A DNA stretch of 64,000 nt, from positions 64,001 to 128,000 of the IMG/VR virus record IMGVR_UViG_3300036985_002246; one strand, given 5' to 3'. Positions 13,132 to 22,900 of this stretch are shown here, in pieces. A program made the translations under genes and the position numbers. Every line of letters starts with the position of its first letter. Positions within the stretch are counted from its first letter, which is position 1. The stretch comes from a virus. The notes beneath the pieces were generated by a model that worked only from the letters and a program-made list of their open reading frames with translations, ran no database searches and had not been told where the DNA came from.

Positions 13132-13461
13132 ATGACAAGTCCCTATCGGTCGAACGTCTCGTTCACTAGGTTGGTGGACGACTGCTGGGAGACCCTCCAG
13201 GGGAAGCGGAGCGTCTCGTTCCCTCTGGGCAGTCGAGCAGCACCCTCCAACGTCGTCTTCGTGTTCCCGAGGTTCGACGTGGGGTACTACTGGGAACTCT
13301 GGGACCAGGTGATCGCTCCGACCCTACTTGCCCTGAGCTTGCAGCCACCGACCTGCTTGGGGGGCTGGAACAACCTGAGCACCAGGACGACCGTGGAGGC
13401 CGCCCTGCTTGCGGCCCTGAACGCCTCAGATTGGGCGGCCAAGGTCGATTTCACGTCCTGA
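13132..13461 (+). CDS. hypothetical protein
   Basis: 109-aa ORF with GAGAG upstream and plausible composition. Confidence 0.55.
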   Translation: MTSPYRSNVSFTRLVDDCWETLQGKRSVSFPLGSRAAPSNVVFVFPRFDVGYYWELWDQVIAPTLLALSLQPPTCLGGWNNLSTRTTVEAALLAALNASDWAAKVDFTS

Positions 13462-13507: not shown

Positions 13508-13568
13508 GGTTGAATGCTCGCAGGGACTACAATCCAAAACGTGCCGTCCCTGCAAACTCTCGTCAGCC
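13508..13568 (+). ncRNA. Y-RNA-like scaffold copy 1 (minimal)
   Basis: GGTTGA/TCAGCC terminal stem, GAATGC, CAGGGAC/GTCCCTG inner stem, TACA, CTCGTC. Confidence 0.65.
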
Positions 13569-13614
13569 CATGGCCCCTCTTCCCCTGAGAATTCCGGCCT
13601 GAAACCGGCCCTAG

Positions 13615-13645
13615 AAAAAAAAGATCGACCCCATGTCGATTTTCT
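13615..13645. terminator. possible bidirectional intrinsic terminator
   Basis: A8 run, GATCGAC-CCCAT-GTCGATT hairpin, then TTTCT. Confidence 0.4.
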
Positions 13646-13968
13646 CTGGACAGGTCACGGGACTTCGTTCACCCTCACCACTCTAGCTCCCTACCCACAA
13701 CCGAACCGGCCATGACTTCCAGAATCCAACCCACAACGCCTTCACACAGGTATCCGGCCTCCAAGCCGAATATGGTGTGGTGCGCCTTGTCCGTCGGAAG
13801 CTCGGATCTGTTCGAGAACCTCCGTCAGGCGGGTACCACCGGGTGACCTAGATCTACATCCTCACTGAGGACGCGACTAGGGCCACCCAGGGAAACCGGG
13901 GTGGCCCTTCTCGTTTCTGGACCTTCAACTTCTCAAGGAACACGCGGCGACTGGTCGGAGAACACAAC

Positions 13969-14051
13969 GGAGACGATGCGAGTGGTCTCGCAAGCGGACT
14001 GTAACCCCGCTCCCCTTCGGGGGATTTCAGGTTCGATTCCTGGCGGCTCCA
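13969..14051 (+). tRNA. tRNA-Tyr(GTA)
   Basis: cloverleaf with long variable arm, loop CT-GTA-AC. Confidence 0.85.
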
Positions 14052-14119
14052 CTACTCGAACGAGTGAGGTGCGAATGTTCAGAACACAACTCAAACCCGC
14101 CGACGCCCAGCACACGCTT

Positions 14120-14195
14120 GGGGTCGTAGCTCAGTAGGCAGAGCAGCGGGCTTTTACCCCGACGGTCGAGGGTTCGACGCCCTCCGGCCCCACCA
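14120..14195 (+). tRNA. tRNA-Lys(TTT)
   Basis: cloverleaf, loop CT-TTT-AC, CCA encoded. Confidence 0.9.
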
Positions 14196-14211
14196 AGTTC
14201 AGTTCGCTCAT

Positions 14212-14246
14212 ACCGTCGTAGCTCAGTTGGGAGAGCAGCCGGTTCT
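14212..14246 (+). pseudogene. orphan tRNA 5' half, broken at the anticodon loop
   Basis: acceptor 5' strand, D arm GCTC-AGTTGGGA-GAGC and GCCGG-TTCT, with no 3' half. Confidence 0.7.
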
Positions 14247-14299
14247 CCGTATGCTCTTTGGCTCTTACCCTCAGTGTGCATTCAGAGTATGCTGTGGGC

Positions 14300-14725
14300 A
14301 TGGATCAGAAACTGTGCTCTAGGTGCAAGACGCGAAAGCCCGCAGAGGCATTTGCCAGAAACAGTGCGAAGAAGGACGGGAGGCAGCAACACTGTAGGGA
14401 GTGCAAGTCGAAGATAGACGCTGCCTACTACAAGGAGAACCCAGGCAGGATCCGCGACGGGAAGAAGCGTTCTGTGGAGCGCGCAAAGAAGATGGTCGAG
14501 GACTTCTTGCGCAAGTCCAAATGCGTTGTCTGCGGCAACGACGATTGGGTTGTTCTGGAGTTCGACCACCTGGGGGACAAGCTCTACGACGTTTCAACCA
14601 TGGTGCAGGACGGGCTGGGGTTGGAAACCATAATGAGGGAGATCGAGAAGTGTGAGGTAGTCTGCGCGAATTGCCATAGGCGCAGGACCTACCAAAGAGG
14701 GAAGACGTGGCGTTTGGGACGATAG
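14300..14725 (+). CDS. HNH endonuclease, homing type
   Basis: CSRC/CREC zinc pairs, CVVCG..LEFDHL..KCEVVCANCHRRRT; stop codon lies inside tRNA-Lys(CTT). Confidence 0.85.
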   Translation: MDQKLCSRCKTRKPAEAFARNSAKKDGRQQHCRECKSKIDAAYYKENPGRIRDGKKRSVERAKKMVEDFLRKSKCVVCGNDDWVVLEFDHLGDKLYDVSTMVQDGLGLETIMREIEKCEVVCANCHRRRTYQRGKTWRLGR

Positions 14726-14786
14726 CTCAGTGGTAGAGCAACCGGTTCTTACCCGGTCGATCAGAGTTCGATTCTCTGCCGTCCCA
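14716..14786 (+). tRNA. tRNA-Lys(CTT)
   Basis: ACCGG-TT-CTT-AC-CCGGT arm, full cloverleaf. Confidence 0.85.
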
Positions 14787-14793
14787 CTCTTGA

Positions 14794-14864
14794 TCCGGGT
14801 TCGTCCAATGGCAGGACAGTCGCCTCTGGAGCGGCATATCGGGGTTCGAGTCCCTGACCCGGAA
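14794..14864 (+). tRNA. tRNA-Gln(CTG)
   Basis: GTCGC-CT-CTG-GA-GCGGC arm, cloverleaf. Confidence 0.9.
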
Positions 14865-14873
14865 CTGGTTCTG

Positions 14874-14894
14874 TGCTCTCTGACAACTGAATAG
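14874..14894 (+). promoter_or_regulatory. boxA-like antitermination sequence
   Basis: TGCTCTCTGACAACTGAATAG resembles rrn boxA (TGCTCTTTAACA) and the GAAAACTGAATA-type spacer context. Confidence 0.4.
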
Positions 14895-14990
14895 GACTTC
14901 TTCGAGGCGCTCCCCAAGAGCGCAGAGCGAGGACTCCCGTGCCCGGACGGCCCCCAAGGGCGGCGGACACGGGAGGGCCTCACTCACCAT

Positions 14991-15062
14991 TCCAGGATAG
15001 CTCAGTGGAAGAGCGCCCGGCTGTTAACCGGGTGGTCGCAGGTTCGACCCCTGCTCCTGGAG
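14991..15062 (+). tRNA. tRNA-Asn(GTT)
   Basis: CCCGG-CT-GTT-AA-CCGGG arm. Confidence 0.9.
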
Positions 15063-15065
15063 CTA

Positions 15066-15133
15066 GGACGAATGCAAGCTGGGAGTACATTCTACTTTCA
15101 AGAAACCCACTCTCAGCGAACACCTTGTCGTCC
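15066..15133 (+). ncRNA. Y-RNA-like scaffold copy 2
   Basis: GGACGA/TCGTCC stem, GAATGC, CTGGGAGT/ACTCTCAG stem, TACAT, CTTGTC. Confidence 0.7.
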
Positions 15134-15146
15134 GACTACTTCCCAT

Positions 15147-15218
15147 AGGTCACGGTCAGGGTAACCGGGCGAGACTCCAAATCTTGCCGTCTGCGGGGTT
15201 CGAGTCCTCGGTGGCCTG
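15147..15218 (+). tRNA. tRNA-Trp(CCA), short D arm
   Basis: AGGTCAC/GTGGCCT acceptor, loop CT-CCA-AA. Confidence 0.8.
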
Positions 15219-15221
15219 CTA

Positions 15222-15356
15222 GGGCGAATGCTCGTGGGGACTACATCTCCAATCTGAAGGGGCTGCCGGAAGGCAGTCTCTCCAATCTGAAGGGGCTGCC
15301 GGAAGGTAGCCCTGGTCGTCGCAAGACGGCTCAGGTCCCCACACCTCTCGTCGCCT
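15222..15356 (+). ncRNA. Y-RNA-like scaffold copy 3, with tandem GNRA hairpins
   Basis: GGGCGA/TCGCCT stem, GAATGC, GACTACAT, 33-nt-period duplication, CTCGTC. Confidence 0.7.
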
Positions 15357-15362
15357 GACTCT

Positions 15363-15433
15363 GCCGCGTGATGCGCTTGGAGCGCAGCCTCTCTGTCTAA
15401 GAGGTGAAAGGGGTTCGATTCCCCTACGTGGCG
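15363..15433 (+). tRNA. tRNA-Asp(GTC)
   Basis: CCTCT-CT-GTC-TA-AGAGG arm. Confidence 0.85.
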
Positions 15434-15443
15434 CTGATCCCAT

Positions 15444-15517
15444 GCAACGGTAGCTCAGTTGGTAGAGCACTTGGCTGAAGACCAGGGTGTCGTCGGTTCG
15501 ACTCCGACCCGTTTGCA
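15444..15517 (+). tRNA. tRNA-Phe(GAA)
   Basis: loop CT-GAA-GA; one extra T bulged in the acceptor 3' strand. Confidence 0.8.
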
Positions 15518-15520
15518 CTA

Positions 15521-15620
15521 CGACGAATGCAGCCGAGACTACAAGCACTTGGTTGACTTCCTCGCCGCAAGGTGAGGTGGCCCGTTCGACTCGGGCAACG
15601 TCTCGGCGCTCTTGTCGTCG
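15521..15620 (+). ncRNA. Y-RNA-like scaffold copy 4, with T arm
   Basis: CGACGA/TCGTCG stem, GAATGC, GACTACA, GCAA-capped hairpin, GCCCG-TTCGACT-CGGGC, CTTGTC. Confidence 0.7.
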
Positions 15621-15624
15621 TTCT

Positions 15625-15696
15625 CAGGGTGTAGCTCAGTGGAAGAGTGCCGCGTTTGGGGCGCGGAAGTCGCGGGTTCGACCCCCGCCACCCTGA
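15625..15696 (+). tRNA. tRNA-Pro(TGG)
   Basis: CCGCG-TT-TGG-GG-CGCGG arm. Confidence 0.9.
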
Positions 15697-15698
15697 CT

Positions 15699-15823
15699 CG
15701 TGTGAATGCTCGATTGGGACTACATCAACTCATACATGATCATGCTGGGTTCGATTCCCAGACGCGCCTACTATGGCGCGTGCAAGGAAGCCTGAAAAAC
15801 GTCTCTTTCACTCTCGTCACACG
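15699..15823 (+). ncRNA. Y-RNA-like scaffold copy 5, degenerate permuted tRNA module
   Basis: CGTGTGA/TCACACG stem, GAATGC, GACTACAT, T arm CTGGG-TTCGATT-CCCAG, then capped 7-bp stem ACGCGCC/GGCGCGT. Confidence 0.7.
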
Positions 15824-15832
15824 TTCAATTTC

Positions 15833-15905
15833 GGGGCAGTAGCTCAGTTGGGAGAGTGTCCGCTTCGCACGCGGAAGGTCGGAGGTTCAACCCCTCTCTG
15901 CTCCA
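15833..15905 (+). tRNA. tRNA-Ala(CGC)
   Basis: TCCGC-TT-CGC-AC-GCGGA arm, G3:U70. Confidence 0.9.
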
Positions 15906-15907
15906 CT

Positions 15908-15988
15908 GGTGGGAATACTCGACGGGGATTACATCTACTGAAACGGAACTGGGGCTCACGCCCCAATCTCTGTCACCCTTGTCCCACC
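15908..15988 (+). ncRNA. Y-RNA-like scaffold copy 6
   Basis: GGTGGGA/TCCCACC stem, GAATAC, GATTACAT, CTTGTC. Confidence 0.65.
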
Positions 15989-15991
15989 TAT

Positions 15992-16064
15992 GTCCCTGTC
16001 GGCTAGTTGGCTAGGCCGCTGCCCTCTCAAGGCGGAAACCGGGGTTCAAATCCCCGCAGGGACG
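15992..16064 (+). tRNA. tRNA-Glu(CTC)
   Basis: CTGCC-CT-CTC-AA-GGCGG arm. Confidence 0.9.
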
Positions 16065-16074
16065 CTCAGTTCAT

Positions 16075-16147
16075 GTCTTCGTAGCTCAGTGGATAGAGCA
16101 GGCGTTTCCTAAACGCAAGATCGGAGGTTCGAGTCCTCCCGGAGACG
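16075..16147 (+). tRNA. tRNA-Arg(CCT)
   Basis: loop TT-CCT-AA, cloverleaf. Confidence 0.9.
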
Positions 16148-16150
16148 CTA

Positions 16151-16281
16151 GGGCGAATACTCGTGGGGACTACATCAACCAGTGGGTCGGTGGTTCGAGT
16201 CCACCTCCTCGTCGAAAGGCGAGGGTAGCTCAGTTGGTAGAGCAACCGGCAACCAAACGGTCTCCACACTTCTCGTCGCCC
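16151..16281 (+). ncRNA. YrlA-like Y RNA (scaffold copy 7) with circularly permuted tRNA domain
   Basis: GGGCGA/TCGCCC stem; T arm GGTGG-TTCGAGT-CCACC, then GAAA-capped acceptor-like stem, then D arm TA-GCTC-AGTTGGTA-GAGC; near a Ro60 gene. Confidence 0.8.
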
Positions 16282-16290
16282 GACTTCTAT

Positions 16291-16366
16291 GGTGGCTGTA
16301 GCTCAACGGAAGAGCGCCCGGCTGTGAACCGGGTTACGGAGGGTTCAACTCCCCCCAGTCACCCCA
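16291..16366 (+). tRNA. tRNA-His(GTG)
   Basis: G-1, C73, loop CT-GTG-AA, CCA encoded. Confidence 0.9.
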
Positions 16367-16373
16367 ATCTCCC

Positions 16374-16447
16374 CGGCGCGTAGCTCAATGGTCTGAGCAC
16401 TCGGCTGATAACCGAGAGAGTGGTAGGTTCGATTCCTCCCGCGCCGA
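16374..16447 (+). tRNA. tRNA-Ile(GAT)
   Basis: CTCGG-CT-GAT-AA-CCGAG arm. Confidence 0.9.
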
Positions 16448-16453
16448 CTGATT

Positions 16454-16525
16454 CGTCCAGTAGCTCAGCGGGAGAGCGCCGTCTCGACAAGGCGGAGGCC
16501 GTGGGTTCGACACCCACCTGGACGA
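16454..16525 (+). tRNA. tRNA-Val(GAC)
   Basis: loop TC-GAC-AA (C33). Confidence 0.85.
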
Positions 16526-16541
16526 CTGCTAGAGTACTGAT

Positions 16542-16616
16542 TGCGGGATGGGGGAGTCTGGTCTACCCCGTCGGCCTCATAAGCCGGAGACACAGGTTCA
16601 AATCCTGTTCCCGCAC
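16542..16616 (+). tRNA. tRNA-Met(CAT), initiator-like
   Basis: TGCGGGA/TCCCGCA acceptor, loop CT-CAT-AA, TTCAAAT T loop; initiator status uncertain. Confidence 0.75.
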
Positions 16617-16620
16617 CTAC

Positions 16621-16682
16621 GCCGGATTCCCACCTCCAGGGTGCCCAGGGAATGGGAGCACCACCCTGGGGGTCCGGCACCA
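16621..16682 (+). ncRNA. minihelix-like hairpin ending in ACCA
   Basis: GCCGGAT/GTCCGGC stem plus 11-bp upper stem, followed directly by A-CCA. Confidence 0.45.
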
Positions 16683-16778
16683 CTTCACCGTCACCTGTCC
16701 GAGACGCCTCCACAGCGGGCGGTAAGGTAGACGAGTCTGGTCTCCGGTTCGAGTCCGGCGCGCAGGTGGTGGTGAAGT
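16682..16778 (+). ncRNA. T-arm-containing RNA closed by a 16-bp stem
   Basis: ACTTCACCGTCACCTG/CAGGTGGTGGTGAAGT and CCGG-TTCGAGT-CCGG. Confidence 0.45.
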
Positions 16779-16780
16779 TC

Positions 16781-16853
16781 GGGCTGGTAGCTCAGTTGGG
16801 AGAGCGCCTCCATGGCATGGAGGAGGTCAGGGGTTCGATTCCCCTCCGGTCCA
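16781..16853 (+). tRNA. tRNA-Ala(GGC)
   Basis: CCTCC-AT-GGC-AT-GGAGG arm. Confidence 0.9.
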
Positions 16854-16862
16854 CTGGTTCAT

Positions 16863-16938
16863 GGGGACGTAGCTCAGTTGGGAGAGCGCGGGCTTTGCAA
16901 GCCTGAGGTCGCAGGTTCAATCCCTGTCGTCTCCACCA
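16863..16938 (+). tRNA. tRNA-Ala(TGC)
   Basis: loop TT-TGC-AA, CCA encoded. Confidence 0.9.
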
Positions 16939-16939
16939 T

Positions 16940-17012
16940 GCCTTCGTAGCTCAGTTGGAAGAGCACTCCCCCGGTACGGGAGAGGTCGTCGGTTCGACCC
17001 CGACCGAAGGCT
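16940..17012 (+). tRNA. tRNA-Thr(GGT)
   Basis: CTCCC-CC-GGT-AC-GGGAG arm (C33). Confidence 0.85.
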
Positions 17013-17021
17013 CTAGTTCAT

Positions 17022-17092
17022 GCGGGCATGGTCAAGTGGCTTGGCCTCGGGCTTCCAACCCGAAGACGCGAGTTCGATTCTCGCTGCCCGCT
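17022..17092 (+). tRNA. tRNA-Gly(TCC)
   Basis: TCGGG-CT-TCC-AA-CCCGA arm. Confidence 0.9.
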
Positions 17093-17106
17093 CTCAGATT
17101 GGTCTT

Positions 17107-17178
17107 GCGGGTGTGGCTCAGTGGTAGAGCATCAGCTTCCCATGCTGAACGTCGTGGGTTCGACTCCCATCACCCGCT
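17107..17178 (+). tRNA. tRNA-Gly(CCC)
   Basis: TCAGC-TT-CCC-AT-GCTGA arm. Confidence 0.9.
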
Positions 17179-17187
17179 CTGATTCGT

Positions 17188-17253
17188 GAGCCGAATACTC
17201 GGTCGGGAGTACATCTTTTGGTGATACCCCTCTCGATCAATCCTCGTCGGCTC
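17188..17253 (+). ncRNA. Y-RNA-like scaffold copy 8 (minimal)
   Basis: GAGCCGA/TCGGCTC stem, GAATAC, GAGTACAT, CTCGTC. Confidence 0.7.
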
Positions 17254-17256
17254 TTT

Positions 17257-17328
17257 GACGCGGTCCTCCCGGCTGGAGGCAACAGATTGCAACCCTGTTT
17301 GAGGTGAGTTCAACTCTCACCCGCGTCT
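17257..17328 (+). tRNA. tRNA-Cys(GCA)
   Basis: GACGCGG/CCGCGTC acceptor, U73, GCA anticodon. Confidence 0.85.
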
Positions 17329-17332
17329 CTAT

Positions 17333-17405
17333 GTCCCCGTAGCTCAGTCGGAAGAGCGGTGGCCTTCTAAGCCGCTGGTCGGGGGTTCAACTCCCTCCGG
17401 GGACG
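17333..17405 (+). tRNA. tRNA-Arg(TCT)
   Basis: GTGGC-CT-TCT-AA-GCCGC arm. Confidence 0.9.
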
Positions 17406-17408
17406 CTG

Positions 17409-17529
17409 AGTCGGTTGAGAGGTGGGGCGGCGAGTACGCCGAAGTCATGTCGCGATAGGCAGGCGAGTAGGGACGATGCGGTGCGCGATCTGCGTCCATC
17501 CCGTTCTCGCCCTCACCTCTGAGCCGATT
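17409..17529 (+). ncRNA. unidentified structured RNA with ~20-bp closing stem
   Basis: AGTCGGTT..AGAGGTGGGGC pairs with GCCCTCACCTCT..AGCCGATT; internal branches. Confidence 0.4.
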
Positions 17530-17540
17530 GGGTTTGTCAC

Positions 17541-17613
17541 GTCCGCGTAGTGAAACTGGATATCACGCATCTCTACGAAAGATGTAATGGGGGTTCGAGT
17601 CCCTCCGTGGACG
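17541..17613 (+). tRNA. tRNA-Arg(ACG)
   Basis: CATCT-CT-ACG-AA-AGATG arm. Confidence 0.9.
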
Positions 17614-17619
17614 CTATCT

Positions 17620-17692
17620 GTCTCCATAGTGAAATTGGACATCACGCTTCCCTCCGAAGGAAGTGATGGAGGTTCGAGTCCTCCTGGAGACG
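17620..17692 (+). tRNA. tRNA-Arg(CCG)
   Basis: CTTCC-CT-CCG-AA-GGAAG arm. Confidence 0.9.
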
Positions 17693-17699
17693 CTATCTT

Positions 17700-17771
17700 C
17701 CCACCGACCAGCGGGTCTGGAGACGCGCCTCATAAGCGTGCTCGCGTGCGGTTCGAGTCCGCCCGGTGGGA
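17700..17771 (+). tRNA. tRNA-Met/Ile2(CAT), short D arm
   Basis: CCCACCG/CGGTGGG acceptor, loop CT-CAT-AA. Confidence 0.75.
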
Positions 17772-17779
17772 CTGTTTCT

Positions 17780-17853
17780 CGGGGTGTAGCTCAGTCTGGC
17801 AGAGCGCCCGGTTCGGGACCGGGAGGCCGCAGGTTCAAATCCTGTCACCCCGA
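17780..17853 (+). tRNA. tRNA-Pro(CGG)
   Basis: CCCGG-TT-CGG-GA-CCGGG arm. Confidence 0.9.
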
Positions 17854-17862
17854 CTACGACAT

Positions 17863-17936
17863 GGGACGGTAGTTCAATCGGTCAGAACTCCCGGCTCATA
17901 ACCGGGCCGGTGGGGGTTCAAATCCCTCCCGTCCTA
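17863..17936 (+). tRNA. tRNA-Met/Ile2(CAT)
   Basis: CCCGG-CT-CAT-AA-CCGGG arm. Confidence 0.85.
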
Positions 17937-17945
17937 CTGCAACTT

Positions 17946-18017
17946 GCCCGGTTAGCTCAGCGGCAGAGCGGCGGCCTTACAAGCCGTAGGTCGAGGTCTC
18001 GGAATCCTCACCGGGCA
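17946..18017 (+). tRNA. tRNA-Val(TAC), atypical T loop
   Basis: GCGGC-CT-TAC-AA-GCCGT arm; T arm GAGG-TCTCGGAAT-CCTC. Confidence 0.8.
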
Positions 18018-18085
18018 CTACCGGACGGGGTCTGCCCTGGGAACTCCTCAGGGCAGACCTCGATCTTGGACTCAGGTTCGTTCTC

Positions 18086-18168
18086 GGGGGTGTGGCGGAA
18101 TGGCAGACGCGCCAGACTAAGGATCTGGTGGTAGAAATACCGTGGGGGTTCGACTCCCCCCACCCCCA
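18086..18168 (+). tRNA. tRNA-Leu(AAG)
   Basis: CCAGA-CT-AAG-GA-TCTGG arm, long variable arm. Confidence 0.85.
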
Positions 18169-18184
18169 CAACTTTGCAGCCCCT

Positions 18185-18271
18185 GCCGGGGTGGTGGAAC
18201 TAGGCAGACACACTGGACTCAGAATCCAGCGGCCCTTCGTGGCCATGAGGGTTCGATTCCCTCTCCCGGCA
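18185..18271 (+). tRNA. tRNA-Leu(CAG)
   Basis: CTGGA-CT-CAG-AA-TCCAG arm, long variable arm. Confidence 0.9.
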
Positions 18272-18287
18272 CTCAGTTTCGTGGTAT

Positions 18288-18373
18288 GCGGGTGTGGCGG
18301 AATGGCAGACGCACCGGCTTCAAACCCCGGCGGGGTAACACCCATGAGGGTTCGACTCCCTCCGCCCGCACCA
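18288..18373 (+). tRNA. tRNA-Leu(CAA)
   Basis: loop TT-CAA-AC, long variable arm, CCA encoded. Confidence 0.9.
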
Positions 18374-18436
18374 ATCTTTCGCTGTCAGCTTCCCAACCCT
18401 CCAACGTCTTCAACCCAAAGGAAAGGCAGGTAGACC

Positions 18437-18967
18437 GTGTTGCAAACACTCGTTCTGGACCAGGGCTACCAGCCTCACCGCATTGTGAGTTGGCAGCGTG
18501 CGGTGTGTATGTGGTGGGAGGGGAAGTGCGAGGTCGTCGAGGAGTACGACGACGACATTCGCAGCGTGACCCTCACGATCAAGATGCCCGCCGTCGTCCG
18601 CCTCCTCCACCGGGTTCGGGGGAAGAAGCAGGCCGTCAAGTTCTCCCGGATCAACGTCGCGACCAGGGACAAGTTCACCTGTCAGTACTGCGGGCTGAAG
18701 CTCCCCCTCTCGAAGCTCACCTACGACCACGTCGTGCCTCGCTCTCACGGAGGCCGGACGGTCTGGGAGAACATTGTCATGGCGTGCTACCCTTGCAACG
18801 AGGCGAAGGCCAACCGCACCCCGGCTCAGGCAAAGATGCCCCTCCGCAAGGTGCCGGTGAAGCCTGAGCACCTCCCAGTCGTGACCATGCGGTTCTCGGT
18901 CGCGAGCGTCCCCGACGCCTGGGTCTCGTATATCTACTGGAATGGTGCCCTCGACGAGGGCTCCTGA
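18437..18967 (+). CDS. McrA-like HNH endonuclease
   Basis: LVLDQGYQP..FSRINVATRDKFTCQYCG..TYDHVVPRSHGG..WENIVMACYPCNEAK. Confidence 0.85.
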   Translation: MLQTLVLDQGYQPHRIVSWQRAVCMWWEGKCEVVEEYDDDIRSVTLTIKMPAVVRLLHRVRGKKQAVKFSRINVATRDKFTCQYCGLKLPLSKLTYDHVVPRSHGGRTVWENIVMACYPCNEAKANRTPAQAKMPLRKVPVKPEHLPVVTMRFSVASVPDAWVSYIYWNGALDEGS

Positions 18968-19131
18968 TCCGGTAGGGAAATCCCCGCCGACGCTGGACGC
19001 CGAACTTCCGGCGTCGGCGGGGACTCCAACTCAATCTTCCGGACGACCTCTGGGTCGGCAAATGCACGGGCGGGGCGGCGTCCGTGGGAAGAAACGATCG
19101 CCAGGTGACTGGTGGTCCGACCCGCCCTCTC

Positions 19132-19644
19132 TCATGTCCCGCGTCTCTTCGTTCGCTTGCGGTGACAGTTGGAGCAAACCAGTTCGCACTTCGCGAGTTC
19201 TTCGCAGATGCGTTCCCAGCTTCTCTTCATCATGATCGACCAATCCATCTTCTTGTCATAGAGGTGGTCGAAGTCGTAGATGACCGGATCATCCACACGG
19301 TCGCAATCGGTGCATTTCCCTCCGAGGTGGGCGACGGCGCGGATCTTGACGGCTCGGTTCTTCTCGTTGCCAAGTTCGTTTTGGCAAGGCTTGCAGTAAG
19401 ATTGCAGTTCTGTGCGTGTCTTGTTCCGCCAACGGAAGCTCTGACTTTCCTTGACGGTTTTGCACTTGCTGCATTGTTTGGGTGGGAAGTTCTGGTACTC
19501 CGACGCCATTCGTACCAGTCGATTCCGGTAGCACGTTGCCCCACAGAACCTAGACCCAGCGGATCGATTCCGGTTTTTCTTGGCGCGGAGATCAAAAGGC
19601 AGCAAGCACGTCTCGCAGACATGACTCTCGTTAGGTGTGCCCAT
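19132..19644 (-). CDS. HNH endonuclease, same family as 14300..14725
   Basis: CSKC/CKPC pairs, GGKCTDC..YDFDHL..KCELVCSNCHRKRT. Confidence 0.85.
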   Translation of the reverse strand: MGTPNESHVCETCLLPFDLRAKKNRNRSAGSRFCGATCYRNRLVRMASEYQNFPPKQCSKCKTVKESQSFRWRNKTRTELQSYCKPCQNELGNEKNRAVKIRAVAHLGGKCTDCDRVDDPVIYDFDHLYDKKMDWSIMMKRSWERICEELAKCELVCSNCHRKRTKRRGT

Positions 19645-19657
19645 ACCCTAACGAGAG
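19625..19657 (-). promoter_or_regulatory. 11-bp inverted repeat enclosing the HNH start codon
   Basis: CTCTCGTTAGG-N11-CCTAACGAGAG with ATG in the loop; TTGACC-N18-TATACC on the - strand just upstream (19657-19686). Confidence 0.55.
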
Positions 19658-19711
19658 GTATAGACTGAAAGTGGACTTCTGGTCAATCTTCGGGTTGGCT
19701 CACGGGCGGCA

Positions 19712-19794
19712 CCGAGCAGCGCCCGTACTGCGAACGGACCGGTCCGTTCGGAGGAGAGACAGTGGGGAGGACGCTCCCCTCAGTTCTGCTCGGA
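19712..19794 (+). ncRNA. acceptor-stem-closed RNA containing a 20-bp perfect palindrome
   Basis: CCGAGCAG/CTGCTCGG plus A-CT; CGAACGGACCGGTCCGTTCG. Confidence 0.35.
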
Positions 19795-19798
19795 CTAT

Positions 19799-19873
19799 CG
19801 GGGTGTGGCTCAACCTGGTTAGAGCACTCGCCTGGGGGGCGAGGGACTGCTGGTTCAAATCCAGTCACCCCGA
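19799..19873 (+). tRNA. tRNA-Pro(GGG)
   Basis: CTCGC-CT-GGG-GG-GCGAG arm. Confidence 0.9.
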
Positions 19874-19939
19874 CTAGGGCCATGGCCCGAAGGTTCGTGA
19901 GGCTTGGAGTCCGTGGCTAGGAGGCCACGCTTCGTTGCC

Positions 19940-20006
19940 GTCGTGAGAGTGCGTGGAGCACGCCTGGCAAGATCCAGGAGGTCTGGTTCAACTCCGGATA
20001 GCGACG
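19940..20006 (+). ncRNA. tRNA-shaped RNA with 6-nt anticodon loop (pseudo-tRNA)
   Basis: D arm GTGC/GCAC, CCTGG-CAAGAT-CCAGG, T arm TCTGG-TTCAACT-CCGGA. Confidence 0.55.
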
Positions 20007-20053
20007 AACGACGTTGAGGTGTGTGCAACACGCCAGGCTGAGCGAACTGTCTT

Positions 20054-20138
20054 GGAAGGTGACCCGGTCAGGGACCGGCCTCGGTTGCTAACCGAAGGGC
20101 ACCCGCAAGGGTGTGGGGATCGATACCTCCTCCTTCCG
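20054..20138 (+). tRNA. tRNA-Ser(GCT)
   Basis: loop TT-GCT-AA, long variable arm, G73, T loop ATCGATA. Confidence 0.85.
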
Positions 20139-20146
20139 CTGTGAAT

Positions 20147-20232
20147 GGAAGCTGAATCGGTGACGGCACCGAGCCTGCCTCGAAAGCAGTGCGCGCCTGC
20201 AAGGGCGTGGGGGTCGGGTCCTCCTGCTTCCG
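20147..20232 (+). tRNA. tRNA-Ser(CGA)
   Basis: loop CT-CGA-AA, long variable arm, T loop GTCGGGT. Confidence 0.8.
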
Positions 20233-20236
20233 CTAT

Positions 20237-20360
20237 GAGTCGTGCTTGGTGCTGGGGAAGCTAGCTCCCGCCTTCGGGTTCGATTCCCGACGGGTGTGAC
20301 GAATGGGGTCATGCCTAGAACTGGCAAGGAAGAGGGTTCGATCCCCTCGCGACTCACCCA
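20237..20360 (+). ncRNA. tRNA-like RNA with two T arms
   Basis: GAGTCGT/GCGACTC acceptor; TCGGG-TTCGATT-CCCGA and GAGGG-TTCGATC-CCCTC. Confidence 0.55.
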
Positions 20361-20364
20361 ACTT

Positions 20365-20447
20365 GGAAGACGAATCAGCCAGGGGCTGAGCCCGCCTTGA
20401 AAGCGGTGCGGTCCGAAAGGACTGGGGATCGGGACCTCCGTCTTCCG
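20365..20447 (+). tRNA. tRNA-Ser(TGA)
   Basis: loop CT-TGA-AA, long variable arm, T loop ATCGGGA. Confidence 0.8.
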
Positions 20448-20460
20448 CTGCGGTCTGCTT

Positions 20461-20545
20461 GGAAGGTGAACCGGTCCGGGATCGGCCCCGCTTGGAAAGC
20501 GGTGGGTGCCTGCAAGGGCATGGGGTTCAACTCCCTCTCCTTCCG
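20461..20545 (+). tRNA. tRNA-Ser(GGA)
   Basis: loop TT-GGA-AA, long variable arm. Confidence 0.9.
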
Positions 20546-20547
20546 CT

Positions 20548-20707
20548 ACACGAGACTCAGGCGGGTTGCTGTCGAGCCTCTACGTCGGTGCGGCGGGAAC
20601 TGATCAGCCTGCGGAGCCGTCGCGGACAACGCTTCTAAGCAAGGCGTTTGGCACTGGTTCGCAAACAGACCCATGGGTTCATGGCCTGTGGTGCTGGGGT
20701 CTCGTGT
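20548..20707 (+). ncRNA. unidentified ~160-nt structured RNA
   Basis: ACACGAGACTC/GGGTCTCGTGT terminal stem fills the whole gap between two tRNAs. Confidence 0.4.
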
Positions 20708-20710
20708 TTT

Positions 20711-20782
20711 GCGGGTGTAGCTCAGTGGTAGAGCAGTGCGTTGCCAACGCAAAGATCGCTGGTTCGATCCCAGTCACCCGCT
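20711..20782 (+). tRNA. tRNA-Gly(GCC)
   Basis: loop TT-GCC-AA. Confidence 0.9.
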
Positions 20783-20843
20783 CTCAATCTCGAAGGAGTC
20801 CCGCTCAGTTTTCAGAGCCCAGAGCGTAAGGGAGGGTATCACC

Positions 20844-22475
20844 ATGGCAAACAAGAGTCTGTTCGCGTCCGCTTCGGCGGGTCGGTCCGCACCGGCAGCC
20901 GACACTGTCAACTCCGCAGGGGGCCTCGCCTACAAGGCTGGCTCGAAGGAGGCGCTCGCCCAGTACGTCGCGACTGGCTGCCTCGGCGCGACCTTCTACG
21001 CCTCGGCGGAGGAGCAGTTGGACGAGATCCTGAAGCTCGCTTCAGGGGTCGATCCCGAGTTCGTCGCGAAGGCGGCGGTCTACGGGCGTCGGTCGGCCTT
21101 CATGAAGGACGCCCCGGCGCTCCTGCTCGCTCACCTGACCATGCGTGGTCCGGAGGGTCTGGCTGCGCTCAAGGCGGCCTTCCCGCGAGTGATCGACAAC
21201 CCGAAGATGCTCCGGACCTTCGTCCAGATCATGCGCTCGGGGCGTGTCGGTCGGAAGTCCCTCGGCACCGCCCCGAAGAAGCTGATCGAGGCGTGGTTCG
21301 AGGCTCGCACCGACGTGCAGCTTTTCCGGGCAACCGGAGACAAGCCGTCGCTGGCCGACGTAGTAAAGATGGTCCACCCAAAGCCCTCGAACGAGGCTCG
21401 GAAGGCCCTCTACGCCCTGCTGATCGGCAGGAAGTACGACCTCGACGCCTGCGACGCTCTCGTGCAGGAGTTCGCGGCATGGAAGAAGGACCCGTCGCGT
21501 CCGGTCCCGGACGTGCCGTTCCTCATGCTCACGAGCGCGGAACTCTCGAAGTCCCAGTGGGCGTCGATCGCCCGGTCGGCCAACTGGCAGACGGCTCGCA
21601 TGAACCTCAACACGTTCCTGCGGCACGGGGTCTTCGAGGACAAGAGCATGGTCAAGCTGATCGCAGCGAAGCTCCGTGACGAGTCCGAGATCGCTCGGGC
21701 GCGGGTCTTCCCGTACCAGCTTCTGATCGCGTACCGGCACACGTCGGGTGTCCCGGTCGAGATCTCCAATGCGTTGCAGGACGCCATGGAGATCGCGACC
21801 AAGAACGTCCCGGCGATCGAGGGTGACGTGGCTGTGTTCCCGGACGTGTCCGGGTCCATGGCGAGCCCGGTCACGGGTCAGCGCGGCTCGGCAACCACCC
21901 AGGTGGCTTGCCGTGACGTGGCAGCCCTGGTCGCGGCAACGATCCTTCGGCGCAACCCGTCGGCTCGGGTCATTCCCTTCAAGGAGGAAGTGGTCAAGCT
22001 GCGGCTCAACCCGAAGGACTCGATCGTCACGATCGCGGACCAGATTGCGAAGATTGGACCCGGCGGCACCAACTGCTCGGCCCCGCTCCGCTCCCTGAAC
22101 CACGAGAAGGCGAAGGCCGACCTGATCGTCTACGTCTCGGACAACGAGTCGTGGATGGACCCCAACGTCCGGCACAACCCGTACACCTCCGGCCACACGT
22201 CGTCCCCGACGGCCACAATGACCGAGTGGGAGGCGTTCCGCACCAGGAGCCCGAAGGCGAAAATGGTCTGTATCGATCTCGCCCCGAACGGCTCACGTCA
22301 GGCCCCGACCCGCGAGGACATTCTCAACGTCGGAGGCTTCTCCGACGAGGTCTTCACCCTCATGAACGAGTTCCACAAGGGATCCGGTCGTGACCACTGG
22401 GTGAGGAAGATCGAGTCAGCTTCGTTCGACCGTGCTCCGGTACCGGTCGTGGTCGAGGCGGCTCAGGCTCTGTAA
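20844..22475 (+). CDS. rsr: Ro60/Rsr (TROVE + vWA domain) RNA-binding protein
   Basis: DTVNSAGGLAY, EALAQYVATG, MKDAPALLLAHL, SLADVVKMVHPKP, RMNLNTF, RVFPYQ and MIDAS-like DVSGSM..GGTNC..SDNESW motifs. Confidence 0.9.
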   Translation: MANKSLFASASAGRSAPAADTVNSAGGLAYKAGSKEALAQYVATGCLGATFYASAEEQLDEILKLASGVDPEFVAKAAVYGRRSAFMKDAPALLLAHLTMRGPEGLAALKAAFPRVIDNPKMLRTFVQIMRSGRVGRKSLGTAPKKLIEAWFEARTDVQLFRATGDKPSLADVVKMVHPKPSNEARKALYALLIGRKYDLDACDALVQEFAAWKKDPSRPVPDVPFLMLTSAELSKSQWASIARSANWQTARMNLNTFLRHGVFEDKSMVKLIAAKLRDESEIARARVFPYQLLIAYRHTSGVPVEISNALQDAMEIATKNVPAIEGDVAVFPDVSGSMASPVTGQRGSATTQVACRDVAALVAATILRRNPSARVIPFKEEVVKLRLNPKDSIVTIADQIAKIGPGGTNCSAPLRSLNHEKAKADLIVYVSDNESWMDPNVRHNPYTSGHTSSPTATMTEWEAFRTRSPKAKMVCIDLAPNGSRQAPTREDILNVGGFSDEVFTLMNEFHKGSGRDHWVRKIESASFDRAPVPVVVEAAQAL

Positions 22476-22510
22476 CCGGACGGGGTGGGCAACCACCCCG
22501 GACCGTCTCT

Positions 22511-22582
22511 GCCGGTGATGCTCAATGGCCGAGCACCTGTTTCGTAAGCAGGACCCTGCGGGTTCGATTCCCGCCACCGGCT
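22511..22582 (+). tRNA. tRNA-Thr(CGT)
   Basis: CCTGT-TT-CGT-AA-GCAGG arm. Confidence 0.9.
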
Positions 22583-22623
22583 CTCAGATTTCTGCTCTAC
22601 TGCAACCTGTTCCGGAACCGTCT

Positions 22624-22695
22624 GCCTCCATAGCTCAGTGGTAGAGCACCTGCCTTGTAAGCAGGGGGTCGTGGGTTCAATTCCCATCGGAGGCT
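22624..22695 (+). tRNA. tRNA-Thr(TGT)
   Basis: CCTGC-CT-TGT-AA-GCAGG arm. Confidence 0.9.
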
Positions 22696-22702
22696 CTGAT
22701 TT

Positions 22703-22774
22703 GGCCCGTTCGTCTATCGGTCAGGATGCTGGACCTTCACTCCGGCGAGGCGGGTTCAACTCCCGCACGGGTCA
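22703..22774 (+). tRNA. tRNA-Glu(TTC)
   Basis: CTGGA-CC-TTC-AC-TCCGG arm (C33). Confidence 0.85.
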
Positions 22775-22778
22775 CTAC

Positions 22779-22849
22779 TCGGGGATCGTCCAAAGGCAGG
22801 ACAGCGGCCTTTGAAGCCGTGAATCCGGGTTCGAGTCCCGGTCCCCGAA
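22779..22849 (+). tRNA. tRNA-Gln(TTG)
   Basis: GCGGC-CT-TTG-AA-GCCGT arm. Confidence 0.9.
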
Positions 22850-22900
22850 CTACGTTTTCTCCGGGCACCGGGCAGGGGTCGTCGGCGTAAGGTTCCGACC

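Follow-up and report, generated by a model that had tools for sequence, protein, structure and literature searches.

Here we report that a 64,000-nt stretch of viral DNA encodes a predicted full-length Ro60 (Rsr) protein together with eight structured RNA elements, Y1 to Y8, which are probably paralogous Y RNAs of the YrlA/YrlB type bound by Ro60. The stretch, hereafter the window, covers bases 64001-128000 of an IMG/VR virus contig of 199,475 bp (63.7% G+C, estimated completeness about 45%), and positions are counted within the window. Judging from the sequence, the elements are very probably the partners of the phage's own Ro60. They have one structure in common, carry a handle that resembles that of YrlA and YrlB, are conserved in related phages, are linked to Ro60 genes and, for the most part, abut transfer RNA (tRNA) genes. 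Y RNAs usually number one to four per system.

Folded singly, all eight elements adopt the same scaffold, with a terminal stem of 6-7 bp, an asymmetric internal loop, an inner stem of 8-9 bp and a variable insert; their fold z-scores against shuffled sequences range from -2.9 to -4.8. The 5′ side of the internal loop reads AAUGCU or AAUACU. The constant part, or handle, is made of a terminal stem ending in G-A/U-C, a loop AAUGC(N) opposite (N)CUYG, and an inner stem with a conserved G·U and a conserved G-C pair, followed by UACA. The motifs GAAT(G/A)C, [AG]NTACA and CT(C/T)GTC are present in every copy, as are the paired ends, motif loop and variable distal module of the general Y RNA fold. 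The elements are listed below with their scores under R1, a covariance model built from 19 short copies (4 from the window and 15 from related phages), and with their orthologs, given as locus label and position, (-) marking the minus strand.

Y1, 13508 to 13568, + strand: minimal (handle with an 18-nt loop); R1 52.1 bits, E-value (E) 2.1e-11; fold z-score -3.99; the sole copy without flanking tRNAs, 47 nt past an open reading frame (ORF) at 13132-13461.
Y2, 15066 to 15133, + strand: minimal; between tRNA-Asn and tRNA-Trp, with gaps of 1 and 12 nt; R1 59.2 bits; ortholog L028:6981-7049.
Y3, 15222 to 15356, + strand: handle with three GNRA hairpins (GGAA, GGAA, GCAA); between tRNA-Trp and tRNA-Asp; fold z-score -4.47; R1 27.4 bits, the 3′ end being placed at 15313 by the model; orthologs L028:7177-7283 (two hairpins) and L029:9429-9520(-) (one hairpin).
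Y4, 15521 to 15620, + strand: handle with a GCAA hairpin and a T-arm-like hairpin; between tRNA-Phe and tRNA-Pro, with gaps of 3 and 3 nt; R1 35 bits, E 7e-7, outside the training set.
Y5, 15699 to 15823, + strand: handle with a small hairpin, a T arm, a closed acceptor-like helix and a reduced third hairpin; between tRNA-Pro and tRNA-Ala(CGC); R1 37.4 bits, outside the training set; the architecture recurs with compensatory changes at L029:8971-9094(-) and L028:9413-9537.
Y6, 15908 to 15988, + strand: handle with one G+C-rich hairpin; between tRNA-Ala(CGC) and tRNA-Glu; R1 50.5 bits; fold z-score -4.79; ortholog L029:8680-8755(-), with a GAAA-loop hairpin.
Y7, 16151 to 16281, + strand: YrlA-type, with a circularly permuted tRNA inside the handle (T arm, closed acceptor helix bearing a GAAA loop, and D arm); between tRNA-Arg(CCT) and tRNA-His; R1 43.5 bits; orthologs L028:7926-8059 and L029:7820-7951(-).
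Y8, 17188 to 17253, + strand: minimal; between tRNA-Gly(CCC) and tRNA-Cys; R1 58.2 bits; the copy closest to Ro60, 3.6 kb upstream of it; orthologs in the same slot L028:10590-10676, L029:5879-5944(-) and L012:6156-6222.

For Y3, the 3′ end at 15313 found by R1 was set aside, the minimum-free-energy fold and the orthologs favouring 15356.

On the window, R1 gives exactly eight matches, all on the + strand (E 2.7e-13 to 7e-5), and these include the four long copies absent from its training set. Across the whole contig, a less sensitive R1 search gives seven matches at E ≤ 1, all at the elements and none elsewhere, and a strict descriptor combining the motifs with both helices finds six of the eight elements on the two strands of the contig and nothing else. 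The paralogs have their structure in common, not their sequence: mean column identity is 43% in a MAFFT alignment of the eight full-length copies. Because of the variable inserts, MAFFT misaligned the 3′ strands, and a model-based alignment was used instead.

An earlier reading of the window, made from its letters alone (the sequence-only reading), had proposed eight elements on one scaffold, and all of them are present within 1-6 nt of where it had placed them. The motifs it named recur in all copies, the single folds and R1 agree on its scaffold, and its account of the inserts is borne out: minimal loops in Y1, Y2 and Y8, a hairpin in Y6, GNRA hairpins in Y3, a T arm in Y4 and Y5, and a permuted tRNA in Y7. 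It had also suggested a covariance model, a comparison with Rfam and a search of related phages. These were run; the model is specific, the YrlA/YrlB handle is matched and relatives carry the scaffold.

The TROVE/vWA gene that the same reading had placed in this region does, by Pfam and clade-profile evidence, encode a full-length Ro60, and it is the only Ro60 copy found on the 199-kb contig:

20844 to 22475, + strand: Ro60 (Rsr) gene with TROVE and vWA domains, identified by Pfam and profile searches.

Its predicted product matches vWA_Ro60 (PF25045; 67.5 bits, 1.8e-18) and TROVE (PF05731; 25.6 bits, 9e-6), both above the Pfam cut-offs. A clade profile built from the window's Ro60 and 13 relatives matches the Rsr of Deinococcus radiodurans (2NVO) in the PDB at 4.9e-37 over residues 14-517, nearly the full length, and additionally matches Xenopus and human Ro60 and the Ro60 of phage phiLo (including 1YVP and 9KOP). 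The DxSxS motif of MIDAS, the metal ion-dependent adhesion site, is intact, D334, S336 and S338 being invariant in the 14 clade members.

The handle itself points to the bacterial Y RNAs. The Rfam consensus of YrlA reads CgaAUGC, then a G-rich inner stem ending in CUAc, then cUuGucGcc; that of YrlB reads GaAUGCU, GGGAUUA and UUUGuCgcgC. Our scaffold aligns column by column with both, and the motifs of the elements therefore correspond to the handle of known bacterial Y RNAs. The Rfam YrlA model (RF02553) matches Y7 end to end (model positions 1-114, 48.1 bits, E 2.6e-10), through the T arm, closed acceptor helix and D arm that define the tRNA-like domain of YrlA; only parts of this domain are found in Y5 and Y4. 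Weaker YrlA matches were obtained by E-value scan for Y4 (33.6 bits) and Y3 (22.3 bits), and the YrlB model (RF02565) matches Y1 over its full length with 25.9 bits.

A protein search with Ro60 retrieved 18 viral contigs encoding proteins of 94% to 43% identity, most of them longer than 50 kb and the longest reaching 332 kb. In these 18 related loci R1 gives 35 matches, all on the Ro60 strand, and the scaffold is found in 14/18 loci; in distant relatives the Y RNAs often stand directly beside Ro60. This same-strand association, together with the handle alignment to YrlA and YrlB, upholds the Y-RNA-like identity that had been proposed for the elements.

The claim that the stems covary was also sustained, for both helices. 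In an alignment of 39 sequences, which was fitted to the model and is thus biased towards the structure, 95.9% of the cells are standard pairs as against 66.1% in shuffles, with 176 double-sided changes as against 50.8, and the covariation score is 0.82, compared with 0.22 for shuffles and 0.07-0.12 when partners are slid. The slid-partner controls strongly indicate that both helices are real. Within the inner stem, one pair is nearly always G·U and the adjacent one nearly always G-C.

Two relatives, whose Ro60 proteins are 83% and 76% identical to that of the window, were analysed in full. Each has six Y copies, most of which occupy the same tRNA slots as in the window:

Asn/Trp slot (Y2): copy in one of the two relatives.
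Trp/Asp slot (Y3): copy in both relatives.
Pro/Ala slot (Y5): copy in one of the two relatives.
Ala/Glu slot (Y6): copy in one of the two relatives.
Arg(CCT)/His slot (Y7): copy in both relatives.
Gly(CCC)/Cys slot (Y8): copy in both relatives.

The type of insert is constant in each slot while the helices vary by compensation. Indeed, T, acceptor and D arms are found in the Arg/His copy of each of the three phages, and the Y5-type copy has its T arm, closed helix and small hairpin in all three, although in one relative it follows tRNA-Val and not tRNA-Pro. In the Trp/Asp slot, the number of GNRA hairpins is three, two or one depending on the phage, and the extra hairpin of Y3 is a fresh tandem duplication of 33 nt (15246-15309) that accounts for its first two hairpins. 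Selection thus acts on each paralog separately, as would fit distinct jobs. In an unfitted MAFFT alignment of 12 tRNA-mimic copies, 19 of the 24 predicted pairs show a compensatory change, the T and acceptor helices covary, and the T-arm pairs are never broken.

The tRNA parts seen in some inserts (T arm, D arm) and the presence of homing HNH genes in the array could suggest that the elements are decayed tRNA genes or members of a mobile repeat family, devoid of function. We consider this extremely improbable and rejected it. The paralogs share their structure at only 43% sequence identity, there are 176 compensatory cells, phages with Ro60 proteins of 76-83% identity retain the same slots and types of insert, and the repeat searches run here found no terminal repeats around the elements.

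Two further observations concern tRNA mimicry. One Y RNA of the closest long relative (L028:9553-9693) folds with an apparent D arm as in class II (Leu-type) tRNAs and, if this reading of the fold, which does not come from an alignment, is right, it appears to copy another class of tRNA than Y7 does. The small hairpins of Y2, Y5 and Y8 were inspected by eye for mimicry of anticodon loops, but the likeness was unconvincing and the idea was dropped.

The layout of the elements suggests how they might be made. In the window, seven of the eight copies start 1-8 nt past a tRNA and end 3-12 nt ahead of the next one; most copies in close relatives similarly abut tRNAs, and across loci a tRNA or another Y copy lies within 20 nt of 32/44 copies, on one side at least. 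Such tight abutment makes release by tRNA-processing enzymes likely. We infer that the Y RNAs are transcribed jointly with the phage tRNAs and likely freed by RNase P, which would cut the next tRNA at its 5′ end, and by 3′-end tRNA processing, the 3′ end of the preceding tRNA being trimmed or cut by an RNase Z-type activity. The handle would then be bound by the ring of the phage's own Ro60, and the insert would set the job of each Ro60 particle. Thus, the tRNA-shaped inserts of Y7, Y5 and Y4 could recruit tRNA-binding enzymes or exoribonucleases, the hairpins of Y3 and Y6 could recruit other partners, and the handle-only Y1, Y2 and Y8 might do no more than occupy Ro60 or gate it. Rsr-Y RNA-PNPase machines suggest, by analogy, that overall the particles could direct the decay or quality control of RNA during infection, probably in connection with the large tRNA output of the phage. 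The sequence-only reading had put forward triage of phage tRNAs or a decoy role as possible jobs.

The same layout could be read in another way, with the elements as structured spacers of the tRNA operon that serve as processing signals for RNase P, RNase Z or RNase E, or as folding punctuation, independently of Ro60 and with an incidental likeness to the handle. In favour of this explanation are the abutment to tRNAs in 7/8 window copies, the 32/44 copies with a close neighbour across loci and the tie of the elements, in some relatives, to the tRNA array and not to Ro60. However, Y1 and many copies in relatives adjoin Ro60 without flanking tRNAs, single copies in small phages (see below) mostly have no tRNA within 20 nt, and most tRNA junctions of the same array have no such element. 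Moreover, the invariant loop nucleotides are those of YrlA and YrlB, whose bacterial operons are not tRNA operons. We therefore regard the spacer explanation as decidedly unlikely and retain the assignment to Y RNAs.

Beyond the Ro60 relatives, a narrow handle pattern retrieved 83 stretches from IMG/VR, where by our rough estimate chance would give a handful. Both helices score above thresholds in 69 of 90 pattern matches, and many matches lie within 15 nt of a tRNA; five look like chance, and R1 finds none of these five. In large or complete contigs that carry the scaffold in tRNA arrays, Ro60 is always present, sometimes 25-80 kb away. The RNAs therefore track the tRNA array and not the Ro60 gene, and the published rule of searching within 4 kb of Ro60 would miss them. 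The pattern also led to at least 14 phage genomes that are at least 90% complete (38-76 kb) and carry one handle-only copy each (R1 34-58 bits). The stems of these orphan copies are varied and covary. Most of the copies are intergenic and lie more than 20 nt from any tRNA, and for many of them the retrieved stretch contains no tRNA at all; the adjoining genes (exonuclease, portal, DNA ligase, terminase) are heterogeneous and give no functional clue.

Orphan single-copy loci: L033, L034, L046, L048, L055, L058, L065, L072, L076, L080, L087, L088, L092 and others.

Several observations weigh against the identification of the eight elements as Y RNAs of the phage's Ro60. First, the bacterial Y RNA motif GNCGAAN0-1G is strictly matched by Y2, Y3 and Y4 only, as the sequence-only reading had stated; in Y7 and Y8 the last G is replaced by A, and Y1, Y5 and Y6 are without the C. 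Second, none of the eight elements reaches the Rfam gathering scores (at best 48.1 against 69 for YrlA and 25.9 against 97 for YrlB), and at these thresholds Rfam detects no Y RNA in the window or in seven related loci, which explains why such RNAs lack annotation. Third, the window copies lie 3.6-7.3 kb from Ro60, on the same strand, and only Y8 falls within the 4-kb limit used in PMC4201824; in some relatives, the distance grows to the 25-80 kb mentioned above. A promoter and terminator scan did no better than on shuffled sequences and was uninformative. Finally, no Ro60 was detected in the at least 14 single-copy genomes by the clade profile, Pfam TROVE or Pfam vWA_Ro60, the positive controls being detected; in five more genomes, Ro60 was not found by the clade profile alone.

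It follows that the phage need not always encode Ro60 itself. The link to Ro60 is not thereby refuted, because bacterial hosts can supply Rsr, on which the orphan Y RNAs may act. The sequence-only reading had named a scaffold common in arrays without Ro60 as a finding that would speak against its proposal; single minimal copies do exist in small phages devoid of Ro60, but the large or complete genomes with copies in tRNA arrays all have it. One may go further and propose that the Y RNAs act mainly on the host Rsr, as sponges or re-programmers, the phage Ro60 being an optional extra. The orphan copies are consistent with such a role, and the identity of the handle with that of bacterial YrlA and YrlB makes cross-binding to host Rsr plausible. 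However, the presence of Rsr in the hosts of these phages is an assumption, a phage Ro60 accompanies the RNAs in every large or complete genome that has them in tRNA arrays, and in distant relatives they often stand directly beside it. Altogether, we judge it unlikely that host Rsr is the main target, and favour the phage's own Ro60 as the partner of the eight elements.

Phage Ro60/Y RNA pairs have been described before, and the kind of system is therefore known. A total of 355 YrlA-like RNAs have been reported near Ro60 in 254 bacteria and 22 phages (276 genomes), with at least two Y RNAs in Salmonella and in M. smegmatis, where YrlA is cleaved by RNase P and receives CCA (PMC4201824). The YrlA/YrlB-Rsr systems of Salmonella Typhimurium, Mycobacterium smegmatis and mycobacteriophages (Chen et al. 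2014, PMC4201824) have the same consensus nucleotides in the handle and, as in the window, RNAs on the same strand as Ro60; Y7 has the same permuted tRNA module as YrlA, and the minimal copies resemble YrlB. The window differs in having eight paralogs and not one or two, within a tRNA array 3.6-7.3 kb from Ro60 and not adjacent to it, with some inserts that contain no tRNA parts (GNRA hairpins), with scores under Rfam gathering and with GNCGAAN0-1G strict in 3/8 copies.

Closer in kind is the Thermus phage phiLo, whose Ro60 binds two phage Y-like RNAs and the host PNPase in vitro (PMC12135203, 2025). There too a phage Ro60 is accompanied by phage Y-like RNAs, Yrl1 and Yrl2, which have a CGAA-type motif and a stem-bulge-stem fold. 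However, phiLo has two RNAs directly upstream of the gene, while the window has eight, with varied inserts, in a tRNA operon and known from sequence alone. The working model adopted here, in which Ro60 is bound at the handle and an effector is tethered to the opposite end, is that of the Rsr-Yrn1-PNPase complex of D. radiodurans (RYPER; PMC4201824). Yrn1 is evolutionarily distant from YrlA-type RNAs, and an effector role of the phage RNAs would be an analogy. In phage Bas63, the Ro60-like protein gp130, likewise encoded beside tRNA genes, counters the ppl defence system, and its authors suspected some of the neighbouring "tRNAs" to be Y RNAs (PMC11482910, preprint). While gp130 offers an anti-defence precedent, it belongs to a different protein lineage, the paper leaves the Bas63 RNAs undefined, and the present phage has no defence system linked to it.

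Among cultured phages, a megablast of the array returned a tRNA match only. The closest by Ro60 is the Myxococcus phage Mx1 (OR576727.2; 45.8% identity), in which Ro60 likewise lies within a tRNA array with at least two Y-type RNAs between tRNAs, although fewer copies are detected than in the window. One of its Y RNAs (L027:8607-8710, that is OR576727.2:45521-45624) lies between tRNA-Ile and tRNA-Asp, under a coding sequence annotated as a hypothetical protein (WNM70101.1); a second, YrlA-like match (OR576727.2:45169-45297, 32 bits) lies between tRNA-Glu and tRNA-Ile. R1 gives no match in Mycobacterium phage Catera or Streptomyces phage Samisti12, each of which has one sub-threshold Rfam YrlA match. 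R1 is therefore clade-limited, and these two genomes serve only as a rough one-copy baseline.

That eight copies exceed the one or two usually described, as the sequence-only reading had put it, holds with respect to the published systems (PMC4201824, PMC12135203), but the window is not unique, its relatives carrying three to six or more. What is new here is the set of eight paralogs, the inserts without tRNA parts, the conservation of the same tRNA-operon slots in relatives and a divergence that falls below curated thresholds. One phage Ro60 with eight conserved putative partner RNAs amounts to a naturally occurring test case of one protein served by many adaptors. Their inserts vary from nothing to hairpins to an entire tRNA turned inside out, and most of them are retained in the same slots by related phages. 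The tRNA-flanked arrangement suggests a simple and testable biogenesis through tRNA-processing enzymes. Both the curated Rfam thresholds and the 4-kb rule overlook these RNAs, one Mx1 copy even being annotated as a protein gene. Mx1 and Myxococcus xanthus offer a culturable system in which binding, processing and function can be studied.

A broader proposal, which we hold to be rather doubtful, is that the Y-RNA handle serves phages as an adaptor of general use. In large phages rich in tRNAs, a set of three to eight or more handle RNAs would be matured by tRNA processing, and their inserts would direct one Ro60 ring to targets such as tRNA-cutting defence nucleases or host exoribonucleases, while the single RNA of small Ro60-less phages would capture or block host Rsr. 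If this were true, Ro60 and its Y RNAs would form a widespread and so far unrecognised axis of phage-host conflict.

The tRNA array in which most elements lie, and the genes for two enzymes of RNA metabolism carried by the contig outside the window, are as follows:

13969 to 22850, + strand: tRNA array including Y2 to Y8 and the Ro60 gene, defined with ARAGORN, Rfam and inspection by eye.
C1:31299-31763 of the contig, - strand: nucleotidyltransferase of the CCA-adding/poly(A)-polymerase family.
C1:164901-165374 of the contig, + strand: Rnl2-type RNA ligase.

ARAGORN predicts 37 tRNA genes between 14120 and 22850, every one on the + strand. Only 4/37 have CCA at or just past the 3′ end, most being without an encoded CCA. 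RtcB was not found on the contig. No transfer-messenger RNA (tmRNA) was detected in the window, whereas related phages have one within the same tRNA array (L012:5436-5847, L022:12528-12902 and L029:6184-6592(-)).

Two other structured RNAs were noted in the array. The spacer at 17404-17542, between tRNA-Arg(TCT) and tRNA-Arg(ACG), is long and strongly folded (-72 kcal/mol, z-score -4.1) and has no Rfam match. The tRNA-like element at 20237-20360 has an acceptor-like closing stem, two T arms and an internal GACGAATG; it is undetected by R1 and its fold z-score is only -1.7.

The array also contains endonuclease-type inserts at 14205-14787, 18437-18967 and 19132-19644(-). An ORF at 14300-14713, without a Pfam match, lies between an orphan tRNA 5′ half and tRNA-Lys(CTT); among the inserts is an HNH gene (Pfam E 8e-15), and the ORF of the minus-strand insert, also without a Pfam match, is Cys-rich by eye. 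Finally, a few additional tRNAs beyond the 37 were recognised by eye or by Rfam only, with tRNA-like genes missed by ARAGORN at 13969-14050, at about 20040-20455 and at 17699-17775. One of the missed genes resembles tRNA-Tyr(GTA) and matches the Rfam tRNA-Sec model with 39 bits; the others include, by eye, three apparent tRNA-Ser (GCT, CGA and TGA) and an odd tRNA-like RNA with a CAT anticodon.

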